A stretch of 60,039 bases of DNA, the filler included, from Fonticula-like sp. SCN 57-25 (lineage: Eukaryota): the NCBI GenBank assembly GCA_001724245.1. It is 4 parts of 4 records of this genome, joined end to end, with 100 filler letters (N's around TTAATTAATTAA, not from the genome) between each part and the next. Parts side by side here need not be neighbours in the genome. Positions count along the whole stretch, not along the records: positions 45,717 to 60,039 come from MEDX01000161.1; 3 more parts are not named here. One strand, given 5' to 3'. The notes under the pieces are model-generated. The model was given only the letters and a program-made list of their open reading frames with translations. It had not been told where the DNA came from and made no database searches. Both the position numbers and the translations under genes were made by a program. This document shows, piece by piece, positions 951 to 60,039 of the stretch (position 1 is the first letter of the stretch; each line of letters starts with the position of its first letter).

Positions 951-1170
951 GGGCACGGCGGCACACACTCGTCAGTCACTCCGCCCTGGCAGCAGGCAGC
1001 CCTGCTTTGCAAAATGTTTGCAGCCACCTGTTTGAAGTCGAATCTGAGACGACCGACGGCGAATGATGGCTGAATATGGCCGGTTCGTTTCAGTCAACTT
1101 GATACGGTAAGACGAAATGTCACTCGAGGCAGACATTTCACCACGTGGCCGCGAGTGACAGCCTCGAGGG

Positions 1171-21000: not shown

Positions 21001-21130
21001 TCGCAAAAGTGAGGGAATAAGAGTGTAAATAAAAATAGCCAAAAGTAAATTGTCGATGAGGGAAAATGGGGAATTGTGATTGGTTGAGAGGCGTTTTGCG
21101 CAGTCATCACGCGCCAAATTTTGGTGGCGG

Positions 21131-27797: not shown

Positions 27798-28038
27798 GGG
27801 CCAAAGTACACAAAATTAAACATAAATAGACCGAAAATAAAAGAAAGGAGGCAATGTAACTCATTACATACATTAATTTCGTTGTCGTATGCCGATCAGC
27901 TATGCACAAAGGGGGCGCCGCTATCGGCGGGGACCGGGCCGCCACGCAAATAGAGGTGGGGAAAAGGCGGCCCGTGAAACAAACATGAAAATAAACGCCT
28001 AAATAAACGCCTAAATAATATACTTGACCGGCGGATGT

Positions 28039-28417
28039 CTATTGAGACGAAGGCAGGCCTGTCGATGGCGGGGCCGCCGCCTCCGGGGCATTCTTGAGCT
28101 CGTTACTCCGACGCCTCGTTTGGCTGGCAATCACGCTCACCATCATAAACCCAATTGTGGCGCCCTGAAAGAGCACGCGGTAGCGCATCAGCAGCTGCGA
28201 CCTGACCTTGTCGCCGCGGTTAAACGCGCGCATGCCGGCGAGCAGCACGCCGCACGTAGCCCTGTTGCATGACTTAGCATTGGCATAAAAAACGTAAAAA
28301 TAAAACGCACGCCACGCCAATAGGCACGAGAGGGTCGCTCTTGAACTTGCGCCCCATCCGCTCAAAGAACGTCTCGTCCTTTGGCACCGGCGACGGCTTA
28401 AACTCTGGCTCCGACAT
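28039..28417 (-). CDS. HIG1-domain mitochondrial protein (Rcf1/HIGD2A-like), 2 exons
   Basis: The spliced product reads MSEPEFKP...RKFKSDPLVPIGVAATCGVLLAGMRAFNRGDKVRSQLLMRYRVLFQGATI. Confidence 0.9.
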
Positions 28418-28484
28418 GATGACACGGTCAGATGCGGAAGGAGATGGGATGTCACATCCGAATCCGCCCTGGATTGTCTATAAA

Positions 28485-30080
28485 ATGCGCGGGAAGGACG
28501 CGCCCTTGTCGGCGCGCGCCCGCGCGAGCGGCAACGATGCCTTTCGGCAAGCACAATGGGAGTCGGCGGCGCACTTTTATACCGACGCGATATGCCTGGC
28601 GCCGCTGGAGAGCGCCGAACTGGGCGCCGCGTATGGAAACCGATCGGCTGCTCTCTTTGAACTGGCGCAATGGCGCGCGTGCATCGACGACATTTCGTGC
28701 GCGCTGGCGCTGCCCGCGGTGTCGCCCGGCGCACACGAAAAGCTGCTCCGTCGGCGCGACGCCTGCAAGAAAGACTCTTTTGATTCGCAAGATGACGCTT
28801 TATCACCGGAAGCGGTTTCATCGAATATCGCGACACGGATCACGGCCGATGAGGGCCGCTTCCTGGTCGCGGGCGATGCGGGATTCCAGTCCAATGTCGT
28901 CCTTGTCGATAATGAGCGCCCTCTCGCATGCGTCGCCAACGAAGGAGCCCATGTGTGCTGGTCGTGCCTTTCTTCTCCGCTTTGTTTAATCCCTTGCGAC
29001 CGATGCCGCCATGCGCGATTCTGCTCGGTCGCCTGCCGCGCGGCATCCGCCTACCACGAATCCACAGACTGTGCCTCTGCCCCCCCCCTGTCGCCGCGAC
29101 TCCGGCTCGCCGCTCGACTCTTATTTGAATTTCCGAGCGTTGATTGGTCCGCCAGCGTCACTTTGTCCCACGATGCTCATGAACTGCGCGGGTCGGCCGC
29201 CGCTGCTGCGCTCGCGCGGACATCCCGAACCGATCCCGATGTCGCTCCCGTCGCCGCATACCTGCGCGCATCACTACCCGACTATGAGCGCGATATTTCC
29301 GCGCAGTTGCTAGGCGCATTGCAGCGCGTAGACGCGAACGCCTTCGCGGTCCGCCACCGCCGTTCGCGATCCCGCGGCGCCTTGGAGTCTGCCGAAGACG
29401 TTGCCGTCGGCATTGCGACGTACGCCCTTTCGAGCCTATTCAACCACGCGTGCGCGCCAAACTGCGCCGCGACCTTTACTGGCGGCTGCATCAGCGTGCG
29501 GACGACACGGCGCGTTGTGGGCGGCGACGCGCTTACCGTTTCGTACGGCCCGCTGGCGTCGCGCGAGCCGACCGATGCGCGAAAGGCCGCGTTGAGCGAC
29601 CGCTACGGGTTTAGCTGTCGGTGCGCGGCGTGCGCCGCCAACGCACCGGCCTCGGCGTTGCTCCTGCGTTGTCCACGAGGCTGCAGTGGCGCTGTGCGGC
29701 CGCCGGCGGAGCGCCACGCGGCAATAGCATGTGCGTCGTGCGGCGGCGAGCTCGATGCGTCCGTGGCGCAAGTGCTGCGAGACGGGCGCGCGCATACGCG
29801 AGGCGCGCAGCAGGCGCTTCAGAAAGGAAACACAGAGGGCGCGCTGGCCGAGGCGCGCGCGGGAGTCGCGCTGCTCGCCGCCGTGCTGCACCCGTCGTGC
29901 CTCGCCATGGGGGAGGCGTATGACATCATGGCGCAGTGCTTTGTGGAGAAGGGCTCGTTTAGGGAGGCGGCCGATGCGGTCGAGAAGAGCATCATTGCGG
30001 CGGTCGAGGCGTTCGGTGAGGGCAGCCTCGAGGTGGAGGCGGAGCGCGCAAAGCTGCATAGCATCACTGTGCATCTCTAG
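28485..30080 (+). CDS. SMYD4: TPR-SET-MYND lysine methyltransferase (SMYD4-like); alternative ATG at 28449
   Basis: TPR (RASGNDAF...YGNRSAALF), MYND finger (CWSC...CDRC...FCSVAC...H...C), SET (NAF, SLFNHACAPN, TVSYG) and post-SET (FSCRCAAC). Confidence 0.85.
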   Translation: MRGKDAPLSARARASGNDAFRQAQWESAAHFYTDAICLAPLESAELGAAYGNRSAALFELAQWRACIDDISCALALPAVSPGAHEKLLRRRDACKKDSFDSQDDALSPEAVSSNIATRITADEGRFLVAGDAGFQSNVVLVDNERPLACVANEGAHVCWSCLSSPLCLIPCDRCRHARFCSVACRAASAYHESTDCASAPPLSPRLRLAARLLFEFPSVDWSASVTLSHDAHELRGSAAAAALARTSRTDPDVAPVAAYLRASLPDYERDISAQLLGALQRVDANAFAVRHRRSRSRGALESAEDVAVGIATYALSSLFNHACAPNCAATFTGGCISVRTTRRVVGGDALTVSYGPLASREPTDARKAALSDRYGFSCRCAACAANAPASALLLRCPRGCSGAVRPPAERHAAIACASCGGELDASVAQVLRDGRAHTRGAQQALQKGNTEGALAEARAGVALLAAVLHPSCLAMGEAYDIMAQCFVEKGSFREAADAVEKSIIAAVEAFGEGSLEVEAERAKLHSITVHL

Positions 30081-33147: not shown

Positions 33148-34619
33148 ATGTCGATCGGCCCAACGGCCAACTTTGTCGTGGAGGCGGGCCGGCCCGACGC
33201 CAAGGTGACGGGCGTGCACGAGTCGCTGCTGCAGGAGAGCGAAAAGGACATTATCTTTTACAAGGAGTTTTTCGTCGGGAAAGGTGCGCGGCGCGCTGCT
33301 TTTGTGTTGCGTGTGTTGCTCACGTGGGGGTAAAGATCACGTCAATCTGATTGCGGCCGAATCGAGCCTCGGTCCCATCTCGGTGTCGCTGATCCTCGCC
33401 GACGGTGAGTACAAGGCCGTCGTGCGCACGGACAAGGTGCGTTCTTTTCCCTCTTTTTCTATTGTTTTCCTGTAGCATAAAGGCCTCTTTCTGTCGGCCC
33501 TCTCTTGGCCTTTGCACCATCTCTGATCGCGATCGCTGACTTGCGCGCAGGGGAGCGAGCGCCTGGCGTGCAGCGCGAGCGCGGTGCCGGTGCCTTTCTG
33601 GCGCAAGGTGCTCAAGCTCGGCCCGTCGATACCGAGCATCCTCGCGGCGCTGTCGCCGTCGCTGCCAGTGTCGGCACTTACGGTGTGCAAGAGCGCCAAC
33701 CTGCCGGCCGAGCTGCTCGCCATGGAGGAGAGGCAGGTCATTAGGAGCTACAAGTTTGGCGTGCTCTACGCAAAGCACGGGCAGACGACAGAGACGGAAA
33801 TGTTTAATAACAACGGAGGTGCGTTTTGTGCTGTTTTTGGAAAGGAAGGGCGTGTTTTTGGTGCATGTTTGGTTGGTTTTGGTACCGTTTTGGTCTTTTT
33901 TCAGTGCTTTTTGGGCCTTTTCAGGTCAATTTTCAGTGCCTTTTGTGCTTTTTTGTGTCACTTTTATACACACTCACCTTCTATTTATCTTTGCTCACAC
34001 CCGCTCAGCCGAGACCTCGCCCGAGTACCGCCAATTCCTCTCCTTCCTTGGCGAGACGATCCCTCTCCGCGACTGGCGCGGCTACCGCGGCGGCCTCGAC
34101 GTTGTCAACGGCCTCACCGGCACCACCTCCGTCTACACCAAGTGGCAGGGCTACGAGATCATGATGCACGTCGGCACGATGCTCCCCCTCAACGAGCAGG
34201 AGGTGATCCAGCTCGAGCGCAAGCGTCACATTGGCAACGACATTCTCGTCATTATCTTCCAGGACAGCGACGAGGTGCCCGTGCAGCTCGACAGCGTCGA
34301 CTCGAAGCAGAATCACGTGTTTGCTGTTGTGTCGCCGCACGGTGACGGGTACAAGTTTGCGTTGGCGCGCAAGCAGGGCGTGCCAGAGTTTTCGCCGCCG
34401 CTGCCGGCGCCGTGCTACCTTACGAGGGACACGGTTGCACGTGACTTTTTCCTCCACAAGCGTACGCCTCTCTCTATTTAACCACTGTTTCTGTTGGCTC
34501 ACAGCGGGTCCATAGTCATTAATGGAGAGCGCGCGTCGTACAAGGCGCCGAGCTTTGCGCCAAAGATTGCGCGGACGCGCGCGGTTCTGCTCAAGGAGGT
34601 CGCCAGTAGGTTCCTCTGA
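33148..34619 (+). CDS. Rap/Ran-GAP domain protein (Rap1GAP-like), 5 exons
   Basis: YKFGVLYAK.GQTTETEMFNN, FLSFLGETIPL..W.GYRGGLDV, EIMMHV.T.LP, the Asn-thumb motif RKRHIGNDIL, and INGERA. Confidence 0.92.
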
Positions 34620-35707: not shown

Positions 35708-35789
35708 AGCTCACATTTGAAATTCTTACTATTTAGGTCCATATATATAAAGTAATCTCTTTTCTTCCACTCTGCCCATTAGGCCCCCT

Positions 35790-37691
35790 TCACTCTGACT
35801 TTTCCGACGCGAGGATGACGGTGAACTGCGATCCCGCATCCGCCGCGATCACCGTGCGGTTCTTTGTGGGAAGCAGCTTTGGCAGGAACACGTCGTTGTC
35901 GTCCTCGTCGCTCTCGCCGAGCCCGAGCTGGCCGACCGAGCCGGTGCCCCACACAAAGAGGCGGCCGTCCGACGTGGTGCACATCGAGTGCTGCGAGCCG
36001 CAGCCTATCGACACAACGGGCGCGTCCATGCTGACGAGCGTGGGGACAGTCACGGGGAGAATAGAGCCGTCGTCGGACTTGGCAGTCACGCCGAGGCCGA
36101 GCTGGCCGTACTGGTTCATGCCCATACTGCAAAGAAGAGTCAGGAAATAGTGTCAAAAAGGAAAGGAACAAGGCTGAAAAGTAATAAAAGGGCGCAAATG
36201 GTACAAAAAGGCACACAAAAAGGCACACAAACCCCACAATAATAGCCACAAAAATACACGAAATAAGCAAATAAAAGATATGCGTACGCATAGAGCTTGC
36301 CAGTCTTGCTGAGCAGCAGCGTGTGAAAGTCGCCCGCGGCAATCTGCTCAATCTCAAGGTCGTCCAATAATGTGATGCTAAAAGCCACAAAACAGTCAGC
36401 ATGACCACATCTAAAAATAGCACCATAGCGCACCGAGTGGGCTCGTCGACGTCGCGCGTGTGCCCAAAGCCGAGCTGCCCGTCCTTGTTAAGCCCCCAAC
36501 CAAACACGTGTCCGGTCGACATGACGGCAAAGGACGAGAACGACCCCGAAAAGACGGCCACGGCGTGCCCCTTTGACTTTAGGTAGATGGGCACGGGCGT
36601 GAGCGTCGCCTCGCGCGAGCGGCCGCTGGAAAAGGTCGACATGGTCGCGGCGGCAGACGGCGCCACGGGCCGGATCGACGGCAGGAACGGCGGCAGGAAG
36701 GTCGAGGCGGTCGCAAAGCGCGCCAGAACGAGGCGGCCGAGCGGGCTCGGGATCTCGACGATCACCTTGTCGCGCTCCTCATAGCTGCTCTCGAGGCTCA
36801 CATTCAGGAGCTGCTGACGGCGGCCAGCGCCAAAGGTGTACACGCGGCCGTCCGTCGACAGCGCGCACATGTGGTTCGAGCCGGCGGCGAGGCCCGCAAA
36901 CTGCATCGTGGCATCGCGTTAGACATCAAGCAGCGGCATCGCGAGGGCGTACGCGAATAAACTGGACGCTCGAGAGGGGCTCCATCGTCAGCTGGAACTT
37001 GATGCCGGGCGCGAAGCCAAGCACGCCATCCGTGTCCTGCATGGCCACCAGATTCGTCAGCAAAACGCATCGCCAATAAAGTGGAGCGTACGCGGAAGGT
37101 GCCGCAGCCGTACAAAAGGCCGTCCGAGTCAATGGCAAACGTGGCAGAGTCGCAGCACGCCGCGGTGACAAACTTGACCTTTTCGCAGCCGTCGATGGGC
37201 GCGGGATCGTACTCGGCGCCGGTGCGGCCGAGCGCCTTCTCGTCATTGCATCCCCACGTGTACAGCTGCAGGCGCGATGGTTAATCCCCGACCATCATCA
37301 CAGACACACGCACCTTTCCATCCTTGCTGATTGCCGCGGTGTGCATGCCGCCGGCATCGACAAAGACAATGTCCTTGTCGTCGAGCGTCTTGACGGGTCC
37401 GGGCTTCCAGCGATCCGACACGTCGTCGGGGTTCATGCCGAGCTCACCGGCCATGTTGGCGCCGGTCGAAAAGATGACGCCGCTCGTCCCGCTCAGCGTC
37501 GGCACCGGCACGAGGTCGGCGCGCTTGCGCTTGCGGGCAATCACCGCCACGGGGCGGCGGCCCTCGGGAGCCGCCTTCTCGGGCGATTCGCGATCGGCCA
37601 TCTTGCGCTTGCGAGCAGGAGACTGCGTCGGGGTGGACACATCGGCGGCGGCGGCAGCCGCAACCGCCCGCGGTCGCCGGTTGACCGTCAT
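35790..37691 (-). CDS. RCC1: RCC1 (Ran GEF) beta-propeller protein, multi-exon
   Basis: Basic NLS-like N-terminal tail (RKRK), then RCC1 repeats AGGMHT, WGCNDEKALGR, AGSNH, WGLNKDGQLG, GMNQYGQLGLG, GSQHS, AGSQFT. Confidence 0.88.
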
Positions 37692-45716: not shown

Positions 45717-46778
45717 GTCGTCGAGAAGAATGTCACGGGACGTTCCGATTTACCACCTCTGCATGTCGGCATTTTTTTGGTTGCAAGATAAGGGTTGCGC
45801 ACGAGGTCACCATCGAGCTTTTGGAACCTTTCGAGCCTCGAAGGCGCCCTGTCTTTGTAAACAAACAACGCAAAGGATGACGCGACTCTCTCGGATCGTC
45901 ACCCGACCCCACGGCCGCCTGTGCGTCGCTCAAAATAATGCACTTTTTATCGGTGCGTCCTAGTAGCGAAGTGTCCGCTGCCCGCATAGCTGTACGCAGA
46001 CACCGACAGGCATCCCACACAACAGGCGTCTTTCGCCGAGGCGCAACCAGCGACTGACGTCACCGTTGCCTCTGATTGGCCGCTCTTGATGATGGGCGAT
46101 ATGGATTCTTCCCATTGTTTTATTCCAAAGTGACATATGTTAGTTGGACCACTTGGCACTTTGTTGGAGCGCAACTCGGAGTGTTCGTATTTCGGTTCGA
46201 TGGCTTCCCGCCCCCGTGGGAGCCAATCGCGCGGAACTCGCGGCAGCCAATCACATCCGTGAACGATGGGAAAAAGTGTTCTCTTTGCCTTCCCCTCTCC
46301 ATATTGCAGCTACTAAAAAAAGGGGGGACGGGCAAGGGTTTTATTTAGGCAGACGCGAGAGGTAAAGTGTTTCCCTCTCCCCGTTCAACACCCCCCCACA
46401 CACCATCTGCTTCCCGCATCTCGGAGCGAGTGCAGGACGCCGAGCACAAGAGCAGAAGCAGTTTTCGACACAGGCACCCCTTTTTGCGGTGGCTGGAGAG
46501 AGGTAGCGCTAGTTAGCGTACCTGTGAGAGAGCGAGCCTGTGAGCTAGGGGGACCGGCGTCATCGAGAGCATCGTCGATCACGTCAGCACTGCCTTTTTG
46601 CTTCTCGAAGCGATTCAAGCGTGATTTGGCGGCAAGTGTGCGAACGCAGTAGCGGCGCGCGTGATCAGGTCCCGTGGTACGTGCGCGGGAAAACAAGGGA
46701 GTCGCGAATCCAACACGCTCACATTTCGCTCCCTCTAGAAAGATTTTACTTGGTTTCGCGTACACGAGACTTTAAGAT

Positions 46779-48679
46779 ATGTCAACATCGTTTTATCAGG
46801 CGCAGATGCGCCAGCAGGGCATGTTTCCCTCTGTCGCCCCTGGCAGCATGAGTCACCTGGGAACCGAGGATGGCCCCGCGGCGGCGCTCGTCGACTACAT
46901 TCTCGAGCATGACCTCGAAGACGAGCGCCGCATGTACGCCATCGTACATTCTTTGTGTCTGGCCCCCGTAGCTAACCCGTTTTTCTCTTTAGGAACAAGG
47001 TGGCGCCGCAGCGCGAGCCGATGCACCAGCCGGTGGATGTCTGGGCCGAACTGGCCGCTGTCCACACTCTGCTCATCCGCGGTATCCCCCGCGACATTTC
47101 CCTCGCCACTCTCGAGCGCGTCCTTTCGGTGCGCGCGCTCCTCTCGCCGCTTGGCATGTAAGCTGATGGTCGTCTGGTTCTCTATTCTAGTCTTATGGCC
47201 AGTATTTCTCGCTGATGACTTCCGCTCTGCGCGAAGAGGGCTGTGTCCGCGTCACCTACTATGACCATCGCGAGGCAGAGAATGCGCTCCGCCTGCTGTC
47301 AAGCGACCAGAACTTTGGCGTCCGCCTGCACGTGCTGCCGTTCCCGCTTGTCGAGAGCGCCGACAGCGACTCTGGCGTCGGCATCATCGAAGTCTGGGGC
47401 CTCAACGGCATCGACGACTTTGACGTACGTGTTAGAGCTGCTGCCTTTGCCGGGCCCTAACGCGAGCGTGCTTGACCAGATTGTGCAATTTTGCAGCCAG
47501 TTTGGCCCCGTGCGCGCCACGATCCGCCGCTCCAACAGCTATGTTGTCGAGTATTTTGACCTTCGCGACGCGCGGCGCGCGCGCGAGCGCCTTCCGAGCC
47601 GCTCCATCGGCGACACGTTTGGCCCTGTTCGCTGCTCGTTTGTGTCTGGCCACCGCTCGTGGCTCGCCGCCGGCATCCCCTCGCGCTATGACGCTGGCAT
47701 GCCGCAGCAGCCGCCCATGATTCAATTTGCCCCGTCGTCGCAGCAGCATCAGCAGCAGATGGCTTCCGCTGCCGCGCTCTACGGCATGTCGTCGTCCTCG
47801 TCAACCGCTATGGCAGGCAACGCGATGGAAAACATGCCGCCATCCCCGACGACGGGCGCGCCGTGGGCCATGCAGCAGCGCCAGGCGCCCCAGCAGCAGC
47901 AGCAGCAGCAGCAGGGGAGCGGCGCGCCGCCGCCTCTGCTTAATGTCATGGTGAATGGACCGGCATTCCCGACCCAGAACAGCAACGCCATGTCTCTGCA
48001 TCAGCCCCCGCAGCGCTACCTGAACCCGTCTGCGGGCCGGCCCTCGATGCCGCCGCCGCAAGGCGCTCCGCGCGCGGCGCCCAACGGACCGTCGCCCGCG
48101 CCGCAGTCCCGCACGAACGATTCGACGTGCCCGATTGACATTGACGCGATTCGAGGCGGCCACGACCTGCGCACCACCCTGATGGTTCGCAACATCCCGA
48201 ACAAGTACACTCAGGACATGCTTCTTGAAGCGCTCAATAAGACGCACTACCGCAAGTACGACTTTGTGTACCTGCCGATCGACTTTACGAACCACTGCAA
48301 CGTCGGCTACGCCTTTGTCAATGTGATGAACCCCATGGACATTATTTCGTTTGTCGAAAACTTTGCGGGCAAAAAGTGGGAGCGCTTCAATTCGGACAAG
48401 ATCTGCGTCCTCAACTACGCGCGTATCCAGGGCAAGGATCACCTGGTGCGCCACTTCAAGCACTCCAATATCATGCACGAGCAGAAGAAATACCGCCCCA
48501 AGATTTTCTTCTCCGAGGGCGAGCGCTCGGGCCTCGAGGAGCCCTTCCCAGAGTCGGACGACGAGATGGACTCCTTCTCCGACAAGCTTTCGCGCATGGT
48601 CGCGGTTTCGAAGAAGACCCCCATGCAGCCCTTGCAGCAGCGGCAGCAGCAGATGCCCATGTACCGACCCGCTTATTAG
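46779..48679 (+). CDS. mei2: Mei2-like RNA-binding protein (3 RRMs)
   Basis: Diagnostic RRM3 DLRTTLMVRNIPNKYTQDML...YDFVYLPIDFTNHCNVGYAFVN...FNSDKIC.LNYARIQGK. RRM1 (VTYYDHREAENA) and RRM2 (VEYFDLRDARRA) precede it. Confidence 0.92.
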
Positions 48680-49563
48680 AGGCTCGGCAGGATTGCCTGC
48701 CGTCCTGTTGAGGCTGTCGCTGGCTCCTTCGTTTAATTTTGCGTGTACTTTGACGCGGCTTACCGCCATTTTGATCCATTTGGCTTCACGCTGCTCGAGG
48801 CAAGATCAGTTTTTGAGTTGGTCGCCTTTCTATATTTCACCGCTTTCGCCATGTTTTAAACCGAGTGGTTAATTTTGTCGGGAACGCCGTCCGCCGCGGC
48901 TCGTTCCTTTTCACCAAGGTGCTCGTGCTTGTTCTGCGCTATGTTTCTACTTTTCCAGCGATCTATTTTTCGTCATTGGTCGAATATTTGCTGCTTTTTT
49001 TGGCCGCCCTTTTTCGGGGAGTTTTTGCTTAATATTTGTTATGATATTCGCTGCGCCTCTCTCTTTTGAGAATCGGTCGCTTTTGTTCTGCGTATTGCTT
49101 TACTACTTTTCGCCTGACAGACGCAGAGATGCGCGCGCTTGCGAACGTTGTGCTTTTACTTGTTGAGCTTGTGGTCAGTACTGCTCGACCTTTTTTTGGT
49201 GTCACTTTTTGTTCGCACTGTTGACTTTGTGTCCTTTGGAGAACCCGACACGGATGCGCCTCGCGCGCTTCCCGATTGCCGATTTATTCTTTATGTTTAC
49301 TGCCTATTACGTTTTAGGTTTGTGAAGCCGCTTTTAGCGTTTGCAATATATTGGAACTGCCTTTTACTTTCATTGTCTTCTGTTCCATTGCACTTGCAGA
49401 AAGACCGACATACGACTGTATGTCTCTCTCATCTCGATGATTGATCGATGCGTTGATCATTATCAGTGAGATCACTGATGGTCATCAACGATGAAGCGGT
49501 TACGCGCCGTTTTTTTGAAAACACCATTCACAGTGCGAGATCCCCTTTGGCGGCGTCTGCGCG

Positions 49564-52243
49564 ATGACGAGCGAGGGTGATGCTGGCGTGTGGGCTGCGC
49601 TCACAAAGTGGATCAAGCGCAAGGCCCCTCAGCTTGCGCAGTACGAATTCTCTGACAACGATGACGAGGTCATCGGCATCGGCCAGGCGAGCACGCGCGT
49701 GTATCGCGCGACCAAACGCGACACCACTGAGGAGTTTGCGATCAAGGTGATCCACCGCAAGGCGCTTTCGGACGACAAGGTTGTTGAAGTGAAGCGCGAG
49801 ATGGAGATTATGCGCTCGCTCAAGGCGATCCCGCACGAGAATCTCGTCATGTTCCACGAGGCTTTTGAGGATGCCAAGAACTTTTACATTGTGATGGAGA
49901 TCATGGACGGCGGCGAGCTGTTTGACCAGATCGCCAAGCGCGGATCGTTTACTGAGCGCGATGCCTGTATTGTTATGAAGCAGATCGGCAGCGCGGTTCA
50001 GCATCTGCACTCTCACGGCTACATTCACCGCGACATCAAGCCGGAGAATGTGCTTTGCGCGATCCCCGACAGCCTCGAGCTCGTCAAGCTGTGCGACTTT
50101 GGAATGACAAAGAATATCAGCGAGGACATTGCGAGAACGCCCTGCGGCACCGTTAACTTTGTCGCTCCCGAGGTGGTTCTGAAGCACGGCGAGACGGTCG
50201 CGACGCGTAAGGGATACTCATTTAAGGCGGATATGTGGTCCATCGGCGTGCTCATGTTCATGGTGTACGCACATTCCCCTTGCTCCTCAACTAAGATTTT
50301 GTGCTTATTTTGTTGTTACCTTTAGATTGAGCGGTCGCCCGCCGTTCTTTGACGACACGACGAACGGGATCCTGGTCAAGATCCGCAACGGCGACTTTAG
50401 CTTTGCAACGAGCGAGTGGGACTACGTCTCGGAGAGCGCCAAGGATCTCATCCGCGAGTGCCTCCGCGTGCGCGCTGACGAGCGCATTGACGTTTCATCG
50501 TTCCTGCGCCATGCGTGGATGACCGAAGCCATGGTGCCCAAGCAGTTCTCGCCCAAGCTCATGTCGCCCCTCCTCCTGCGCGAGCCGTCTGTGCCTATCA
50601 AGGACTACATGAAGATGATGGTGCGGCCCGAGAGCCCTCGCGCGTCGTTTGCGGGCAACGGCGGTGCGGCGGCGCCGCCGCCAGCGGGCGTCGCGGGGGC
50701 GCCCAGCGGACCGGCCACCGGGTTCACGGGCGTCGTCGGGGAGCCAGAGCCCATTCTGTACCTGCACATGGGCGCAGAGCGGTTCCTCAAATGGACCCTC
50801 GGGGAAAACAAGCTCACTTTTGAGCTGCCAGAGTATTACTGCAAGCTAAAGGGACTCTCTTTTGGTGCGCCAGAAATGCTTGCTAAATGGTTGGTTGCTG
50901 ATACGCATGCGATGTTAGCGGGAAGCGGAACAACGTGCCAGGCGTGGAGCGATCACGAGTCGACGGATGTCCTTGTGCGCAAGGTCACGCAGGCGCTGCA
51001 CGACCCGACGGTGGCGTTCAAGGCGTGGAGGGAGGTGTATATTCTAAAGTCGCTCGAGCACCCGAACGTACGTTAGTAGCGCGGTTAATATACCTACCCA
51101 TGAGTTGGTTGCATAGATGAAGGCTATTGCGGCTTAATTTTATGTTGGATTGGACTGCATATCTAAATGGCGATGTTTTTAGGTGATCACTCTTCTGGAC
51201 GCGTTTGGTAGCCCCATGTCGGACGTGTACCTTGTGACTGAGCATGTTGAGGTGTCTCTGCGGACTCTGCTTGCGACGCGCCCTGTTACGCCCTCCGAGG
51301 CCGAGCTGCTGATGCACGACCTTTTGTCTGGCGCGCATGCGATGCACAGCGCGGAGCTCGTCCACCGCGACCTTAGGCCGGCCAACCTGCTCATCAAATT
51401 TGCCTTCAACCAGGTCTGCGTCCTGCAGATCGGCGACATGTCGTCCGTGGTGAGCCAGTCGAGCACGCGGCCGAGCATGCTGTCGACGTCGGGGCAGCGC
51501 AACTACCGCGCGCCCGAGACGCTCGCCTCGCAGACTAGCACTGCGGCGTCCGATCTGTGGGCCATCGGCACCATTATGGCAGAGACGCTCTCCAGCAAGA
51601 TGCTCTTCTCGGGCGTCAGCGACAAGGAAGTGTTTGTGAATATCATCAGGCTGCTGGGAACGCCGTCCGAGCAGATGCTAAAGGACGAACTCTGCGCCGG
51701 GCCTCCTGTACGCACTTCTGTTGGCATTCTCAAATATTTTGTCTTTATCGATAGTCTTGTTTTTTTTGGCCGCCATCAAATTACCCTTTCTCTTTTGTTG
51801 GCTTGCTATTATTTCTTCTGACGCACGTTTATGTGTTAGCTGGTGGAGGCCGTGTCCAAGGAGGTGTTCCGCAAGGCCTCTCCTCTGTCAGGGCGCCTGC
51901 CTGAAGCGACTCCCGCGCCGCTTGCGGACCTTTTGTCACAGTTGGTGACGTACTCGCCATCCGCCCGCATGACCGCACGCTCGGCCATGCTGCACCCGGC
52001 CCTCAAGAAGGCGCACGCCGCGGCCGCGGCCGTCGCCACCAGGTCGCTGCCCATTGGCTCGTACCTCGCATCCATGGAGGAGCAGCGCGGCGTTAACTGG
52101 AAAAGTGCGCCTTTATTTTATGGGTTGCTAGATGGCCGCCTGATGCTAACGCCGCCGCCGCGCCGCGTCTAGATATGCTGCTCACCGAGCTGGACTCATT
52201 CCACGAGACCGTCGTGAACCCGAATTTCCCGCTGTCATTATAG
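49564..52243 (+). CDS. Two-domain kinase: CAMK-group MAPKAP-kinase-like domain fused to a p38/Hog1-like pseudokinase
   Basis: Domain 1 is intact (FAIK, HRDIKPEN, DFG, TPCGT..VAPE). The open ORF 50327-51076 links it to domain 2 (FELPEYY, REV.ILK.L.HPNVI.LLD.F.SP..DVYLVTE, HRDLRPANLL, YRAPE, WK.ML..ELDSFH). Confidence 0.85.
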
Positions 52244-52731
52244 GTGAAGAACAAGCGAGGGAGGGGGTCGCGTATATTCATTATCTATTTATTATCCGAG
52301 AAATGGTTATTTTTTATGAGGGTGTTGTATAATTTTGGCGTTGCGCCACCCGTGTTCTAATAGAACAGAAAGCATATTGAGATGATGCAAGTAGCGGGGC
52401 TAAAACGCAGGGGAACCGTCAACTCGGAACCCTCTCGCAATGCTCTCATACACAATATACTAGGGTACTCAATGTGAACGCCAAGCGCGGTGCAGTGCAG
52501 GAGTACCAATGAACAGAATGATAAACTAAAGAATGCAAATGCCGAGGTTCCTGCTATAATCCGAGTTCGTGTCGAATCGAAAATGTCCAAGTCACGTGAT
52601 TAGCGGTTACCGCAAATTTCAAACAACTCGCCATCATCGGCATGGCGCGGTCGAGCGGGGCATCCGTCGACGGCGACCTGTCGTCGCGACCCCGCTGGCA
52701 CTCCACGACACGTTCGTTGACCACTTCCATG

Positions 52732-54661
52732 CGTCATGACACCTTCACTGCCCTTCCGACCCTGTCGCACCGCCCTTTCAGCGGTGTGCGATCGCGCGTC
52801 AAGTTGGCGTGGGCCGGCTCTGCATCGCCCCTCAAGGAGAATCTCCAGCAGCAAGTGGCGCGATCTGTTGCGTCCGGCGACGTACACGTCAAGCCTGTTT
52901 CGCCGGCGTCGCGTTCGGCGGCTATCCGTAGCGCAACGCAAGTTCGTGCGACGCCCAGGGCGCCTATTGGAGCATCGGCTGCAGCAGGGCCTTCGACGAT
53001 GGCTGCGCGGACGACGATCGCAGCAAAGAAAGCCGCACCGACACCAAGCAGCCGTGGGAGTGTGCTGGCAGTATCAAATACCGCGACATTGCGCGCATCG
53101 GTAGATAGGAGCAAATCACGTGTGGACACGAAAGCAGGGGCGACCACGAAAGCAATGGGTACAAAATCAAGCGTGAAACCTTTGGCAAACCCCCGCCCTG
53201 CCTCTAGCGCTGAGCGCGCAACGATCTCTTTGGCAGCCAGGGTACCACTAACGCAAAGGGCGGTGCCCAAGCCTTTCGCCAAGCCGGTGGCTGTGTCAAA
53301 GGGAGGCGCCTCATTGGCGGCCGAGGGTGCTTGTAACAAGACACCGTCTACCGCACGATCGTCCGCTGCGGTGTCAAAGCAAACAACACGAGCACCAACG
53401 TCTGCTATCCAAAGGCGAGCAGTGCCGGTGATCAGGCCAGCAGCCGCGTCCAAACAAGCAGCGCCTGTAGCAAAGCAAGCAGAAACGAAACTTCAAACAT
53501 CGCCGGTAACCAAGGTCGCAAAAAATATCAAGGAAGCGACGTCAGTTGCTTCAACGCAAGCCGTGCAATCCACAAAAGCACATCAAGCGCAGAAAAAGGA
53601 AATATTGCATGTTCATTCGGTGGCCGCGTCGCCTCTTGCTTGCATGACTGCGTCATCAGACGGCGAGCGGCAGCTCTGCCTACCTGCCACGTCCCCGCGG
53701 ATCGGGGCCGCCAAGCGCGCGCTTGACGCGCCGTCCCCGCTGGCGAGTAAGCGGTCTCGTCCGCTGCCGTCGGGCCTCTCCCCGACGTCGCAGCGCCGCG
53801 CCGAGTCGCGTCTCCTGCACGACAAGGCGCTTGAGCGCGACGTGTACGAGTGGCTGTGCGCCGTGCTGCCTCTGCGCGCGCCCGCCGCGCCGTGGGACGA
53901 CGACGCGCTGCCTTCCCTGCTTGCCTCGGGTGACACGCTGCATGCGCTTCTTCTTCTCGTGACAAGAGCCTGCCAAAGCAATGTGGTTGTGCCGCCGTTG
54001 CGGTTTCCGGGCGCGGCCCCAGGGTCCTTCTTTGCGCGCGACAACATTGCGGTGTTTGTCCATGTGGTTTCAAAGCTGCTGGCAGCGCACGGCAATGGGT
54101 GCGACAGAGTTGGCAGGGGACGCGGCGCCGCGTTTGAGGTTGCGGACGTCGTCAACGGCGACATGGCGCCTGTGGCGCGCGTGATACTGCAGCTTGCGAG
54201 GGGCATGCCGCGTAGCGGAGGTGACGGCGGGGAAATAAGCGCTCTACCGCAGTCGGTCGCGTTCGAGGACGAAATTGACATGGAAATTAAACAGGAGGAG
54301 CAGGCCATTGAGGAAACGGCCGCGGCCGAAGAAACGATGGCGACGGAAGCAGCAGACGATCTTGCTGCGAATAAGGTGTACGCGGCAGCGACGGATGACG
54401 AGGTACGCATGGAGACTGCCTACTTTGCGACGTTCCTGACACGATAATGGGCAGATTGACGCGCATGTGGCAAAGTTGGTAGAGGAGCGCGCGCCGTGGC
54501 TGTCGAGTAGGCTTACCCGCGTGCGGCGCGGGACCTATCACTTACGCGTTGGCGACTCACAGATCGTCAAGATGTACGTGCGCGTGTTGTGGATGCAGCT
54601 CATGGTGCGCGTCGGCGGCGGGTGGGAAGATATGTTTTCTTTTTGCGAGCGCCGCAGGTGA
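52732..54661 (+). CDS. GAS2-family actin-microtubule linker (CH + GAR domains) with long basic N-terminal region; start uncertain
   Basis: CH domain (DVYEWL...LASGDTL, APGSFFARDNIAVF, FEVADVV) and GAR domain (RVRRGTY...MYVRVL..QLMVRVGGGWEDM). Intron ~54403-54454. Confidence 0.85.
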
Positions 54662-54810
54662 CAGCAGTCCTTTAGTGTATCATTTTCAGCAACAATCCAG
54701 TGAGTAGTTATAAAAACACGCACTATATGTATTCCGAATTATACAAACAAACAACGAGAACAACGGAAGCAAGCAACACGAATAACAGTTAAAATGAATA
54801 GAATCGTGGT

Positions 54811-56918
54811 TTACACCGGGAACCTCTGCCCAGCGACAGCAATGGGAAAGTGCTGCAGCTGCGAGCTGTGTACGTAGTGCTCACACACCGAGCACCAGGT
54901 ATTAAAGTCTCGCAATGAAAGACACATTGGGTGACCCTCGCCAGCTGCGTGAGCGCTTGCGTGCGCCTGTATATACCGAGAGCATCGCACAGCACCGCAG
55001 TGCAGGCACATCCAATTCTCCTCCTTGCTCGAGCAATCAGCGCATGGCGCAGCCTCGGTGCCGTCAAACAGATCTACCCTTGACACATCAAGCTGCGAGC
55101 GGATCACATCCGCCACGTGCGGGCATGTCGACAGGACAGTCACTGCGCCCCCGCGGTCCGTCTCCGCCGTCAGCTCGGCCGCGGCGGCACTATTCAATGC
55201 GGCAGCGCTCCCCATAGTCGGCGTCGACGGCGCAGATGCGGCCGCTCCTACTGCTTCTGTTGTCGCTGTCGAGCTCGTCAATGCGATTCCCGCTGCTGCT
55301 CCTCCTCCGCGTGTCGTTGAAATAGGAGGCGCGGTGCGCGAGGGCTGCGGCGCTGCCGACCGTGTACTTGACCTCGGTGTCGTGGGCGGCGTCGTGCTAC
55401 AGCAGCGAGAGTGTCAGTATAAAAGTGCGCGGCTCGGTCGCGTGATGCGCACGAGGCCGATTTGGCTGCCGCTATGCGCGCTGAGGAGCGTTTGATGGTC
55501 GGGAGGGATGTCCACACTTGTGAAAGAGCAAGAATGGTCGTGTTGATGTCTGCAGCGGCGTCGGCCCGTGGCTCGCCAGAGACGACCGCCGCTGTGCTGA
55601 TCGCGTCAGGCCCGTCCAGCATGATGCGCGCACAAGCGACGGCGGACGCGCTGATGGATTCTAAATTGTAGCCGCCCTCAAGCGCGAGGAGGACGCGCCC
55701 GCCGGCCAGCGACATGAGCTCCTTCATCATGTACGCGTAACCCGCGGGCGTCACCGTGCAGCCGCCGAGCGGGTCGCCCAGCGCAGCATCAAAGCCAGCA
55801 GAAATAAGCACCAGCTGCGGGCGGTACTCGCGCGCAATGGGCATGATAACGCGGTCAAACGCGGCGGCGTACTCGCGGTCGCCCTGCCGTGGGCGCTCCC
55901 AGCCAACATTGATATTGTAACCTTTGCCCTGTAGAGAGCATCACAATCATGCATGAGAAAAGCCAAAGAAAAAAATTTAGAGAGCAGAACGAGTTGTGCA
56001 AAAACGTACGGCTCCCTTGCCGATGTTGAGCGGGCTGCCGAGCTTTCCTCCCGGGTAAAATGAGCCGCTCTCGTAGCGGTGGAGGGACACGTACATGACC
56101 CGGGGATCCTCCTCAAACATAAGCTGCGTGCCATTGCCGTGATGCACGTCCCAGTCAAGGATGAGTACGCGGTCCAGGCCCAGCGTGTGCACCGCAACAG
56201 CCGCGGCAACCGCCACGTTGTTGAAGAAGCAGAAACCCATTGCACGGTGCGCCTCGGCGTGGTGGCCGGGCGGCCGCACAATCGCCATTCCGCTCTTAAT
56301 CTTGCCCTTTACAATCTGCTCCGTCATCTCCACGCACTATGCGACACGCAGGTGGGCGGGGGTCAGCCTTGGGGAAAGGCAAAGGCAAAGCAAGTGAGAT
56401 AGTCGTACCGAGCCTGCCGATAGCAGCGCGCACTCTACGCTGTCCTTGTTGATGTAAACAGAGTTGTAGGACCCTGACGCCTTGTTCAAGTCGTCCTGCG
56501 TAAGGCTGGCGTCCATGAGGCGGCGGCACGCCTCAACATGGCTGGCCGTGTGCACATAGCCAAGCTCGCTGTCCGTTACCTATCGATAGAGGACGAACGA
56601 GGCGTCAGAGGGGAACGCAATAGGCGCGATCTACGACGGCGCACCTCGCGCGGCGGTATCAACCTAAAGCGGTCATAGAGACCCGCCTCCTTGAGAGCAG
56701 ACTCGATGGAGACGAGTCGCTCGGGGCACTCGGGGTGCTCGTCGTCGTCCGGGTCAAAGTGGCGGCCCATGGTATGATCGAGAATGAGGCCTGAGACTGC
56801 AGCCGTACAAAGATATCGCGTCAGCAATCAATAGACTGGCTCATAATCGCGCACCGGTGGCATCCTCGAGCGCGACGCTCGACAGGCGCGTGAGCAGCCC
56901 GGGCACGTCGGCACTCAT
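54811..56918 (-). CDS. HDAC6: Class IIb histone deacetylase with a single catalytic domain and C-terminal ZnF-UBP (HDAC6-like)
   Basis: [55 protein letters not shown]. ZnF-UBP: CPH...CADC...ENWMCLHC...CSRY..AH...H...WC..C. Confidence 0.88.
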
Positions 56919-56989
56919 CGCGCGCCAACAACTGACCGCAGACCCTGACAAGTCACCACTTGAATCTGTCTTGGATCCGGATTGTATTA

Positions 56990-56997
56990 TCACGTGA
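56990..56997. promoter_or_regulatory. E-box TCACGTGA in the HDAC6/MED4 bidirectional promoter
   Basis: CACGTG recurs in upstream regions at 1142, 37825, 39238, 40288, 42747, 52593 and 56991. Confidence 0.45.
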
Positions 56998-58057
56998 TGA
57001 CGCGGCGAGAGGAGGCGGCAGCGGCCGCAGCGGGTAGCGAGACTAACCTGTCGCTGTTATCATTAAAGGTGCGTTAGAGAGGAAGGCGTGACGGCTTTTA
57101 ACCAAGATGCTTGCATTAGGTGACTGCACAGGCCCGCCTTGCCCACTATGCTGCCCTCACACGACAGCTGCTGACCACAATACAAGATGCCGCCGAGCGA
57201 CCTCAGGATGCCGCAATATCCGCCCCGCTGTCATCTCTCCCGACATATGCTCTCATGGAACAGCTCCTTATTGCAGACGCCCAATTTCAGAGTTCAGTTG
57301 AAGAGCGTACGAATGATTTCGGAGGGATTCTGTTTTTTTTGGCTCGACCGCACTGTTTTCTCCCGTCGGCTTGGTGTCGTACCGTACACCCCTAGTCGGT
57401 GCCGTTTCCTTTTTTTTAATCGTGAATTGTGAATGATCCTTGTGCTTTTTGCTTTGCTTTCCAACGATGCTTCATGACTCTATGCCACATTTGCGTTTTG
57501 TTTTCTTTGGTTTGCTGCCATTTCCATGTCCGCTTCGCGTGCTTACGTGACGCTATGGGGTAGTGCATGCGCACCAGCGCTTCCAGCGCCGCATTGACGA
57601 CGTGCAGGCGGAGGTGCGCCGCCTTGATGACCAGCTTGACGCGTTGGTGCGAAACCTCCGCGTTGCCGAGACGCAGCTGGAGGGCGCCCTTGACCGCGGG
57701 CGCTCGCGGCTCGCCTCGATGCAGCAGGCGGACGCGCGCGGCGTGACCGTGGACGATATTGTCTCGTACGCGCGGCGCATTAGTTACACGACGGCGGCGC
57801 CGCCGCAGTTCACGGGCAAGGGGCCGCTCGCGCCTTCCATGCCGCCCGCGCCGCGAGAGGAGCAGATGGCGCTTTCGCTGCTTTACAGGAAGACGGGCGC
57901 GTGGAGCGATGCGGCCCCGACGACGGCGGTTGCCGCTGGTGTTGCGGGCGCGGCGCAGGAGGCCGTTAAGGGGGCAGCCTCACTGCAGGCTTCCATCCAG
58001 CTGCCGATGCAGGCCGACGACGTGCAGGCCGACGAGGACTACAGCCTCGATTTGTAA
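56997..58057 (+). CDS. MED4: Mediator subunit MED4 (3 exons)
   Basis: Coiled coil followed by V.VDDIVSYARRISYTTAAPP...PPAPREEQM..SLL and an acidic tail DYSLDL. Confidence 0.85.
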
Positions 58058-58532
58058 TTTTTGTGTGTATATATAATATGAGTGTTGATATCCATTTTTG
58101 TTGCTTTCGAGAGATTTGGACGTCCAGTAGTGATCGAATGCGTTTCGCCCGTGACATTGACTAGAGGCGGCTGCTCAGTGGAACAACTGCCGTGGTTGTA
58201 CAGATGTACAGGAGCGAATATACGGTGTGATTAATGGAATGGCGACATTGGAACAGACAAATGGTATTGTGGTTTCATAATTTTGCATGCATACGCCACC
58301 CGCAGCCGACCAGCAGGCCACCGGTATCATAACGCAGTCAGCAGTTGTCTGACAAATATCCGGTGCATATCGCCCTTACGATCAGTGTGCTGATCTGGAT
58401 TTGATTGCGATCGCCTGGCGCGACCAATCATTTTCACGCATTTGTCTCATATTCACAAGACAATCACTGCTGCGTCACTTTCATTCGTTTCCCACCCCGC
58501 CATCCTCCACCACGACTTGCACTGCTTGAAAC

Positions 58533-59905
58533 ATGTCCGATATTGACACCCGCACCATGGCGCTTAGCGCGCGCGCCGCGAGCCGCCACCTGCGCACTTT
58601 GCCCGCATCTGTTCGTGTGAGCATCCTGAACGAGATCGCCGACTCGATTGTGCGCCAGGAGAGCGAGATCCTAGCCGAGAACGCTAAGGACCTTGCTGCA
58701 TCGTCGTCGCTCCCGCCCGCGATGGCCCAGCGCCTCGGACTCAAGCCGGAAAAGCTCCAGGCGCTTGTTGCCGGTGTTCGCCAAATGGCAAGCGCGGAAG
58801 ACCCTCTCGGCCGCGTGCTTCGGCGCACCGAGCTTGCCCCTGGGCTTGAGCTGAGGCAGGAGACAGTACCCATTGGCGTGCTGCTTGTGATCTTTGAGGC
58901 GCGCCCGGACGCTCTCATTCAGGTCGCGTCGCTGAGTATCCAGAGCGGTAACGGACTTTTGCTGAAGGGCGGCCGCGAGGCGCTCTATTCAAACCGGATC
59001 CTCCACCGTATCGTCATCGATGCGGTGTCGTCGCAGGGGGTCAACCCCGGTCTCATCGGCCTTGTTGAGTCTCGCGACACGGTCGAATCGCTGCTCAAGC
59101 ATGACGATGTTATTGATCTTGTGATCCCGCGCGGGTCCGGCGAGATGGTGCGCCACATCCAGAGCTCGACGCGGATTCCCGTTCTTGGACACGCCGACGG
59201 TGTCTGCCACGTTTTTCTTCCAAGCCCCGTGTCCGACGAAGCGATGGCAGTGCGCATCGTTGTGGACAGCAAGACGGACTACCCCGCAGCCTGCAACGCG
59301 ATGGAGACCTTGCTGCTCACAATCGAAGTTGCCAAGAGTGAGTATGGCGCAAAGGTCATTGCCGCTCTCCGCGAAAAGGGCGTTGTGCTGCATAAGGGGC
59401 CGCGCGCAGCTGCGCTTGCTCTTCCCCTTTTCGAGGACATGGAACTCAATCCCAACCTCTCCACCGAATACTCGGACCTCGCTGCGACAGTCGAGATCGT
59501 TGGCGACGTCCGCGAGGCAATCGAGCATATCAACAAGTATGGCAGCGGACATACCGACGCGATCGTCACAGATGATGCGCACTTGGCGGCTGTGTTCCAG
59601 GCGGGTGTTGACTCGGCCTGCGCTTTCCACAACGCGTCGACGCGGTGCGCGATGGGGAATAGTGTTGATACTACTCCGTTTATCTGCAATGCTAACGCTT
59701 GCTCTTCGCCCATTATAGATTTGCGGATGGGTACCGCTTCGGCCTGGGCGCGGAAGTGGGCATTGCAACGGGACGGATTCACGCGCGCGGGCCCGTTGGG
59801 GTGGAGGGCCTCCTCACAACAAAATGGATCCTGCGTGGCGAGGGCCATGTCGCTGCTCAATTCGCGCAGGGAGGATACACTCACAAGACGCTGCCTCTTA
59901 ACTAG
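58533..59905 (+). CDS. PRO2: Gamma-glutamyl phosphate reductase (stand-alone ProA/Pro2)
   Basis: [88 protein letters not shown]. Intron ~59646-59718. Confidence 0.96.
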
Positions 59906-60039
59906 GCGACGTTTGCATATCAAACAATGCTGTGGCGTTGCTGTTTAGACATTGCATTCTTGTTTCTTTTCAACGGTCGTTTGACCGCTTCATCCCTGTT
60001 TCGATGTCAGGTCAATACAATACTAGCACATGAATTTGC

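Follow-up and report, generated by a model that had tools for sequence, protein, structure and literature searches.

A single gene of Fonticula-like sp. SCN 57-25 joins a CAMK-group kinase to a MAPK-type domain predicted to be a pseudokinase

Mitogen-activated protein kinases (MAPKs) form stable docking complexes with other kinases, textbook examples being p38–MK2, ERK–RSK, ERK3–MK5 and Hog1–Rck2, and the extent of non-catalytic MAPK function is actively debated. In fungi, Hog1-type MAPKs bind and activate CaMK-like kinases (Hog1–Rck2, Sty1–Srk1); these pairs belong to Holomycota, the reputed wider group of Fonticula-like sp. SCN 57-25. Here we analyse a gene of this uncultured eukaryote that joins a CAMK-group kinase (domain 1, or kinase 1) to a MAPK-type domain (domain 2, or kinase 2). 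The gene lies at positions 49564–52243 of the window, by which we mean the whole stretch of DNA analysed: 60,039 nucleotides, filler included, made of four parts of assembly GCA_001724245.1 joined end to end, the last of which (45,717–60,039, record MEDX01000161.1) carries the gene. It had been singled out in an original prediction, made from the bare sequence, as a MAPKAP-kinase-like domain fused to a degenerate p38/Hog1 pseudokinase. Unlike in the fusion gene, the partners in Hog1–Rck2 and Sty1–Srk1 are separate proteins and Hog1 is active.

p38 phosphorylates MK2 on two residues, T222 (activation loop) and T334 (outside the kinase domain), and MK2 docks via residues 366–390, a p38-docking region and nuclear localization signal with a basic cluster (excerpts of PMC6408796). 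MK2 and p38α chains occur together in the PDB co-crystal entries 2OZA, 2ONL, 4TYH and 6TCA. As in p38α–MK2 (and MK3), a CAMK-group effector is paired here with what reads best as a p38/Hog1-type MAPK, and proline-directed sites in the activation loop (T-loop) and in a hinge after the kinase domain are found in both (T222/T334 in MK2, T192/S309 in domain 1). Unlike p38α–MK2, the fusion gene is predicted to encode one polypeptide, and its MAPK half no longer has DFG, TxY, the catalytic Lys or the acidic residues of the ED and common docking (CD) sites. Unlike MK2, it has a tail without a basic cluster or nuclear localization signal, and the scores of domain 1 against CaMKI exceed those against MK2 or MK3.

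ERK3 and ERK4, which have no TxY, bind MK5 stably and activate it via a motif in the L16 region, not via the CD site (excerpts of PMC12062777). Like domain 2 they are MAPKs without TxY, and they show that a non-canonical MAPK can regulate a MAPK-activated protein kinase (MAPKAPK) by binding. Unlike domain 2, they are active, have an S-E-G loop and long C-terminal extensions, and are separate from MK5; the MAPKs nearest to domain 2 are of the TGY type and not ERK3/4. Orthologues of ERK3/4 were inferred only from Choanozoa onwards, according to 10.1101/2024.10.01.616093.

Like the fusion gene, RSK, MSK and JIL-1 place kinase domains from two different groups on a single polypeptide that belongs to a MAPK pathway, and the activation-loop motif TPC is common to their C-terminal CAMK-type domain and domain 1. 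Unlike in the fusion gene, the partner in RSK/MSK is an active N-terminal AGC kinase and the MAPK is a separate protein; in a quick tree, domain 1 fell outside the clades of RSK/MSK C-terminal domains. An active kinase covalently joined to a degenerate kinase domain is also found in JAK (JH1/JH2) and in plant WTK1/Yr15, where the degenerate domain is thought to be a regulator or decoy (excerpts of PMC6170490 and PMC5770812). Unlike the fusion gene, JAKs belong to the TK group and plant tandem kinases to the RLK/Pelle type, with domains paralogous to each other or to receptor kinases; they contain no cascade pair and no MAPK-type domain.

The gene model, with the start, end and implied exon boundaries of the original prediction, and the features discussed below were as follows:

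49564–52243, + strand: complete coding sequence of the fusion, from ATG to TAG, in six exons; 2250 nt spliced, in frame, single terminal stop, 749 amino acids
49564–50264, + strand: exon 1; N-terminus and kinase 1 subdomains I–IX; Pfam Pkinase 2e-54; best PDB match CaMK1G, 2e-39
49636–50539, + strand: domain 1, residues 25–305, split by intron 1; intact CAMK-group kinase
50137–50142, + strand: T192-P193, proline-directed Thr of the domain 1 activation loop, in RTPCGT.NFVAPE
50265–50325, + strand: intron 1; 61 nt; GTACGC...TAG; GC 0.39; strain single-nucleotide polymorphism (SNP) at 50271
50326–50864, + strand: exon 2; end of kinase 1, hinge/tail, low-complexity linker, start of the MAPK domain to the Gly loop
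50540–50767, + strand: hinge, tail and linker, residues 306–381; Ala/Pro/Gly-rich linker; MSPLLL; Ser-Pro at S309, S314 and S337
50768–50770, + strand: Met382, an internal Met where free-standing MAPKs begin
50768–52240, + strand: domain 2, residues 382–749, split by introns 2–5; complete MAPK-type domain, predicted pseudokinase
50865–50918, + strand: intron 2; 54 nt, in frame and stop-free; donor GTGCGCC; CTGAT branch-like word; GC 0.48
50919–51067, + strand: exon 3; remainder of the MAPK N-lobe; R434 in VLVRK (50978–50980); E452
51068–51182, + strand: intron 3; 115 nt
51183–51707, + strand: exon 4; MAPK C-lobe core; Pfam Pkinase 7.5e-26; p38α alignment; HRDLRPAN at 524, N-Q-V at the ED site, DMS at 548–550 (51435–51443), LST at 563–565 (51480–51488), then YRAPE, DLWAIG and LLGTP
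51708–51839, + strand: intron 4; 132 nt; strain SNP at 51775
51840–52104, + strand: exon 5; CMGC insert, αH/αI helices, L16; HAAAAAV at the CD-site position (52014–52034)
52105–52172, + strand: intron 5; 68 nt; 3-nt strain indel at 52150–52152 inside
52173–52243, + strand: exon 6; end of the L16 helix (WK/NMLLTELDSFH) and stop codon

At the DNA level, the locus is a single-gene fusion of a CAMK-group kinase with a MAPK-type domain. In a single stop-to-stop open reading frame (50183–51076), the last subdomains of kinase 1 are followed by the tail/linker of about 80 residues and the kinase 2 N-lobe, and the exon 2/3 stretch 50326–51067 is stop-free from the end of kinase 1 into the kinase 2 N-lobe. 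Since the 54-nt intron 2 is itself in frame and stop-free, the fusion does not depend on its splicing. One uninterrupted frame and one gene had been proposed at the outset; this reading frame and the six-exon model agree with it, and the sequence features named with that proposal were all found where it had placed them. Both domains matched Pfam Pkinase (PF00069) significantly (exon 1: 2e-54, exon 4: 7.5e-26), and the E-values exclude chance as the source of these matches. The start of exon 2 aligned to profile positions 192–263, the C-terminal end of the Pkinase domain, with a score just below the cut-off (2.6e-07; 30.8 bits, cut-off 31.7).

Two contigs of another assembly covered 48870–50663 and 50696–52312 (99.8% and 99.5% identity, respectively), and a 208-nt contig from a third study (run X4; 50539–50746) spanned the gap between them with zero differences. 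Because these contigs tile the junction, the join is not an artefact of a single assembly. No insertions or deletions relative to the window were reported in four sequencing runs.

All five introns had donors of the form GT(A/G)CG and TAG acceptors. The donor GTGCGCC was common to introns 2 and 5 and GTACGCAC to introns 1 and 4, making two intron pairs with identical donor words of 7–8 nt. Across the whole window and on both strands, GTGCG and GTACG were several times commoner than GTAAG, an excess that may be partly due to GC content. Removal of intron 2 produced LSFAGSG, as the original prediction had proposed, and this spliced form gave a gap-free alignment with Hog1-type MAPKs at the Gly loop. 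The GC of intron 2 (0.48) was lower than that of the flanking coding sequence. On the strength of the gap-free alignment and the lower GC, intron 2 was accepted as a predicted intron. Among 16 donor/branch/acceptor combinations enumerated as alternative introns, the domains would be separated only by those running from 50621 or 50664 to 50918; these are 298 and 255 nt long, lie in coding-like sequence and are considered below only under a two-product reading of the locus.

By alignment and phylogeny, domain 2 is assigned to the MAPK family. All 60 of the best distinct PDB sequences listed for exon 4 were p38α (best 4.6e-22). A HMMER search of exon 4 against 1.84 billion cluster representatives returned 125,460 proteins at E ≤ 0.001. 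Identities among the best 150 of these library matches were ≤43%, save for the window's own 201-aa fragment (P0121), so domain 2 has no close relative in this library. The top of the list consisted of multi-kinase proteins with summed scores; for full-domain scoring, the whole spliced domain 2 was compared with 270 fetched proteins (the 120 best longer relatives of domain 1 and the 150 best library matches of domain 2, with cluster members). P0166 (143 bits), P0179 (137 bits) and P0211 (133 bits) led the single-domain matches, at 33% identity. Their activation loops all carry T-G-Y and are short, as in Hog1/p38; two of the three proteins are fungal by source name.

In a careful tree (39 rows, 376 columns), whose MAPK reference rows were unnamed library proteins labelled by loop motif, domain 2 fell within the MAPK-like set (support 88/87). 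Its maximum-likelihood position was beside the TGY clade, together with another long branch (support 34/26), and the tree constrained to unite it with four TGY proteins was the best tree found, slightly ahead of the unconstrained one (log-likelihood +1.21, p-AU 0.542). The N-terminal strand and the C-terminal L16 helix of domain 2 (W725-K726 ... SFH; C-terminus WKNMLLTELDSFH) align with MAPKs. The L16 helix occurs in non-TGY MAPKs too and marks a complete MAPK, not Hog1 specifically. A complete Hog1-like domain had been claimed: its completeness, end helix included, was borne out, and Hog1/p38 is the nearest type and the best available reading, not a demonstrated one. Exon 5 gave weak generic CMGC matches in the PDB (GSK3, Fus3, CK2, CDK) with no subfamily signal, and the ESM Atlas returned only a generic 'mitogen-activated protein kinase (fragment)' and protein-kinase clusters. 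A word-indexed search of longer proteins with exon 4 gave 22 matches (54–64 bits), the named ones being serine/threonine-protein kinase or 'eukaryotic-like' and bacterial-looking, with no named MAPK reference among them.

A kinase domain is usually called a pseudokinase when at least one of the VAIK Lys, the HRD Asp and the DFG Asp is missing. Domain 2 is predicted to be inactive by this usage because Arg (R434) replaces the VAIK Lys. Its functional sites compare with expectation as follows:

Gly loop: GxGxxG expected; SFAGSG found, with only the third Gly left
VAIK lysine: Lys expected; R434 found in VLVRK, with a Lys adjacent
αC Glu: Glu expected; kept (E452)
Catalytic loop: HRDLKPxN expected; HRDLRPAN found, with D526 and N531 kept and Lys replaced by Arg
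After the catalytic loop: no insert expected; four-residue insert found
DFG: DMS found, with the Asp (D548) kept
TxY: L563-S564-T565 aligned with T-G-Y, in a Ser/Thr-rich loop
YRAPE, DLWAIG and LLGTP: present as expected
ED site: E-D expected; Q540-V541 found (E to Q, D to V; p38α alignment)
CD site: HDPxDE of TGY MAPKs expected; HAAAAAV found

Neither the TxY of the MAPK family nor the TGY of the p38/Hog1 subfamily is present in domain 2, and the CD and ED sites are not acidic. The degenerate motifs listed beforehand (VLVRK, HRDLRP, DMS for DFG, absent TxY, altered Gly loop) were all there. The accompanying description of the domain as inactive is backed by R434, the Gly loop and DMS and tempered by the DFG Asp, HRD Asp, catalytic-loop Asn and αC Glu, which are kept. 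MAPK kinases (MAP2Ks) carry basic docking motifs and have TxY as their target. As domain 2 lacks TxY and both acidic ED/CD patches, the suggestion that it might act as a MAP2K decoy is disfavoured.

Domain 1 had likewise been called an intact CAMK-group kinase, and every catalytic motif was indeed present (GxGxxS loop, K61, HRDIKPEN at 155, DFG at 178, APE at 201). The 60 PDB matches listed for exon 1 were from the CAMK group only and covered CaMKI/II/IV, RSK/MSK C-terminal domains, CDPK, MNK, CHK2/Rad53, DCLK, BRSK and MK2/3. Scores were 138.7 bits for CaMK1G (2e-39), 127 for the RSK1 C-terminal domain, 122 for CaMKIV, 119 for MNK2, 108.1 for MK3 and 107 for MK2. In the careful 39-row tree, domain 1 joined the CAMK rows (support 99/85). 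On these comparisons it is a CAMK-group kinase whose subfamily is not settled by overall similarity.

The two proline-directed sites pointed out earlier were found, as T192-P193 within RTPCGT and as MSPLLL at 313, which holds the Ser-Pro site S314. Thr-Pro at the same T-loop position occurred in 41 of the 195 CAMK-type loops readable in the 120 longer domain 1 relatives. These 41 loops belonged to RSK/MSK/JIL-1-type C-terminal domains and one MNK-like protein (P0114), the named proteins being ribosomal S6 kinase alpha (RSK/MSK) or JIL-1; no CaMKI-like or CDPK-like match among the 195 loops had it. In the hinge, HMMER aligned 'hawmteamvpkqf' with 'hpwinqsmvvpqt' of MK3, and S309-P310 comes next. 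In MK3, the Thr of the aligned hinge is followed by Pro. The label 'MAPKAP-kinase-like' for domain 1 is carried by these two motifs, the T-loop Thr-Pro and the MK3-like Ser-Pro hinge, and not by overall similarity: CaMKI outscores MK2/MK3, and the tree leaves a polytomy. The P-L-L-L word of the tail may resemble the MK2 docking segment.

A CAMK-type domain followed by a MAPK-type domain was found in 0 of the 270 fetched relatives. A MAPK-leaning domain with another kinase region occurred in 24, most of them MAPK-like tandems; P0220, the only one of the 24 with a CAMK-leaning region, has the reverse order and weak scores. In eight proteins the first domain was ambiguous. Six of these were inspected: P0149 carries tandem TEY MAPKs, and five have loops unlike those of MAPKs; P0161, the seventh, has the same layout, was not itself inspected and is named as a bacterial kinase. 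With the junction exon, a word-indexed search of longer proteins gave 3335 candidates and none at E ≤ 0.001, and among metagenome contigs 61 pattern matches reduced to two confirmed loci, both of the same organism (99.5–99.8%), with no relatives. No description of a CAMK/MAPKAPK–MAPK fusion was found in the open-access and bioRxiv literature searched, which offered JAKs, plant tandem kinases, obscurin and similar proteins instead. Together with the 270 relatives, this agrees with the original statement that no described protein is known to have this architecture. The gene is a so far unreported pairing within the tandem kinase–pseudokinase theme, in one uncultured organism.

Dead MAPK-like domains as such are not unique, because the MAPK-like proteins P0182 (629 aa) and P0222 (551 aa) lack TxY and have GFR and DFN, respectively, as degenerate versions of DFG. 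Both have Ser-rich activation loops and 200–250 uncharacterised residues ahead of the kinase domain, and they are candidate stand-alone MAPK pseudokinases of other uncultured eukaryotes. P0149 (1347 aa) is a tandem of two complete TEY-type MAPK domains with a long tail rich in Ser and Thr behind them.

Our best explanation, taken as a whole, is that the dead MAPK serves as a built-in regulatory or docking partner of kinase 1; we give it an even chance. An N-terminal CAMK-group kinase, predicted to be active, would be wired like a MAPKAPK, with proline-directed acceptors in the T-loop and the hinge, and the flexible tail/linker of about 80 residues would tether it to a full-length paralogue of Hog1/p38-type MAPKs. 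The gene would have originated by read-through fusion of two adjacent genes, as suggested by Met382 at the natural start of a MAPK and by the low-complexity linker; Met382 is possibly the start codon of the former separate gene. The fused partners would already have been a cascade pair, by analogy with Hog1–Rck2, p38–MK2 and ERK3/4–MK5. The dead MAPK would no longer phosphorylate and would hold, position or allosterically set kinase 1. Alternatively, it may recruit the substrates of kinase 1 or the true activating MAPK. A separate intact, Hog1-type and proline-directed kinase would presumably still phosphorylate T192 and the hinge serines. For domain 2 we infer a possible role as a built-in allosteric regulator, and by analogy the linker could allow a complex of the p38–MK2 type with an intramolecular interface.

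A stronger form of this explanation is that the gene encodes a natural single-chain MAPK–MAPKAPK module, in which a dead Hog1/p38 paralogue would have turned into a permanent and covalently attached regulatory subunit of the kinase that was once its substrate. We consider this form rather unlikely. If it were true, kinase 1 would be set allosterically, as binding of ERK3 activates MK5, live Hog1 or substrates would possibly be captured via MAPK–MAPK or groove contacts, and stress signalling in this lineage would pass through a pre-assembled complex, not through transient docking. The gene would then be a 'Rosetta-stone' fusion and an independent sign of the great age of the MAPK–MAPKAPK complex among opisthokonts, and non-catalytic MAPK functions could be studied in it as a minimal system.

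Several observations weigh against a tethered regulatory MAPK. The sole RNA-library contig (run X20, share 0.07) is 238 nt long, lies inside exon 1 (49706–49943) and crosses no exon junction; it could be carried-over DNA. The retention of D526, N531, D548 and E452 means that inactivity of domain 2 is not proven. Domain 1 has a tail (...MSPLLLREPSVPIKDYMKMM...) in which only one Arg follows LLL and no cluster of Lys/Arg occurs, so that no C-terminal MAPK-docking motif of the basic-cluster kind is present; with neither this cluster nor acidic ED/CD residues, p38–MK2 docking cannot be copied as such. Overall similarity does not place domain 1 with the MAPKAPKs (CaMK1G: 138.7 bits, MK3: 108.1 bits). 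In the quick tree of 41 CAMK-type domains, it lay in an open polytomy outside the RSK/MSK clades; the outgroup of this tree was spoiled by one wrong domain (P0014), and it had no MK2/3/5, Rck2 or Srk1 reference rows. The branch of domain 2 is long (2.7 substitutions) and its amino-acid composition deviates, which relaxed selection would also fit. Finally, the fusion is known from one organism only.

Domain 2 might also be active, which would make the protein an RSK/MSK-like two-step relay, with an atypical, TxY-independent domain 2 phosphorylating T192 or the hinge serines in cis. Such a relay would make use of the retained HRD Asp, catalytic-loop Asn, DFG Asp and αC Glu and of the Lys right after R434, and the proline-directed acceptors of domain 1 correspond to MAPK specificity. 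The atypical MAPKs ERK3/4 are active without TxY (excerpts of PMC12062777). Against this, the β3 Lys is Arg, and by structural reasoning the adjacent Lys would face the other side of the strand. The Gly loop retains its third Gly alone, DFG is DMS, and the Lys of HRDLKPxN is Arg. Several independent losses at the ATP/phosphate site suit a pseudokinase better, and we regard the relay as improbable.

The fusion could instead be a recent neutral read-through, in which a duplicated downstream MAPK gene lost its function, the intergenic stop was lost and domain 2 is a decaying passenger. Its occurrence in one organism, the very long branch and skewed composition of domain 2, the low-complexity linker and an internal Met where a MAPK would naturally begin would all suit such an accident, which would be a mere curiosity if limited to a strain. 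The state of the reading frame argues otherwise. Domain 2 comprises 368 codons and four intact GT(A/G)CG...TAG introns, without a stop or frameshift. The GC content at third codon positions (GC3) was 0.79 in domain 1, 0.88 in the tail/linker and 0.80 in domain 2, matching domain 1; the GC of four introns was 0.37–0.48 and that of intron 5 was 0.62. Codon bias is uniform over both domains and the linker, and the whole frame looks coding and constrained. HRD, YRAPE, DLWAIG, LLGTP and the L16 Trp were kept, and the catalytic and docking residues were selectively replaced.

The window was also compared with the other assemblies and sequencing runs, a small sample of strains. The one coding difference was synonymous (50497, Ser291), and no residue-changing difference was found in this comparison. 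Noncoding differences comprised the intron SNPs at 50271 and 51775, the 3-nt indel at 52150–52152, one upstream SNP and five SNPs in the 3' untranslated region (UTR). The coding part of domain 2 is thus invariant between strains, and its introns and 3' UTR vary. As far as so small a sample goes, residue-neutral differences run against a decaying reading frame, and we think it doubtful that domain 2 is a passenger. Within the 3' UTR (52244–52312), five SNPs relative to contig L001 fell in 35 nt (52274–52308); over the 1.1 kb that codes for domain 2 there were none.

That the locus makes two products, through an internal promoter or alternative splicing (kinase 1 only and/or a MAPK-like protein from Met382, with the fusion protein rare or absent), is very improbable: Met382 stands exactly where free MAPKs start, a donor-like GTGCGG at 50621 used with the intron 2 acceptor would shift the frame to an early stop, and neither model has transcript support, but the simplest model has no stop between kinase 1 and domain 2, the linker has the strongest coding-type GC3, and the alternative intron of 298 nt, situated in GC-rich coding-like sequence, would exceed twice the length of the longest intron in the gene model.

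If the dead MAPK is indeed a built-in partner of kinase 1, the gene would be an evolutionary experiment on non-catalytic MAPK function, with the partners welded together and the MAPK half selectively stripped of its catalytic, switch and docking residues. It would imply that the MAPK fold alone is worth keeping beside an effector kinase. A CAMK plus CMGC/MAPK pairing would be added to the short list of tandem kinase–pseudokinases (JAK, GCN2, plant tandem kinases), and the signalling of the little-sampled Fonticula/nucleariid side of the opisthokonts would gain a new data point.

The window as a whole is eukaryotic DNA with short introns. The upstream neighbour of the fusion gene (47219–48679, + strand) encodes a Mei2-type RNA-binding protein (Pfam RRM_2, PF04059, 2.7e-42) with a long Gln/Pro/Ala-rich N-terminal half. 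Four long frames on the + strand (1159–4368, 6414–10094, 18994–21000 and 52600–54447; 615–1226 aa) had no Pfam match at E ≤ 1e-5. Other frames matched a DEAD helicase (21080–22969), VWA (26277–27815, − strand), SET (28278–30080), RapGAP (33540–34481) and RCC1 (35779–36918, − strand).

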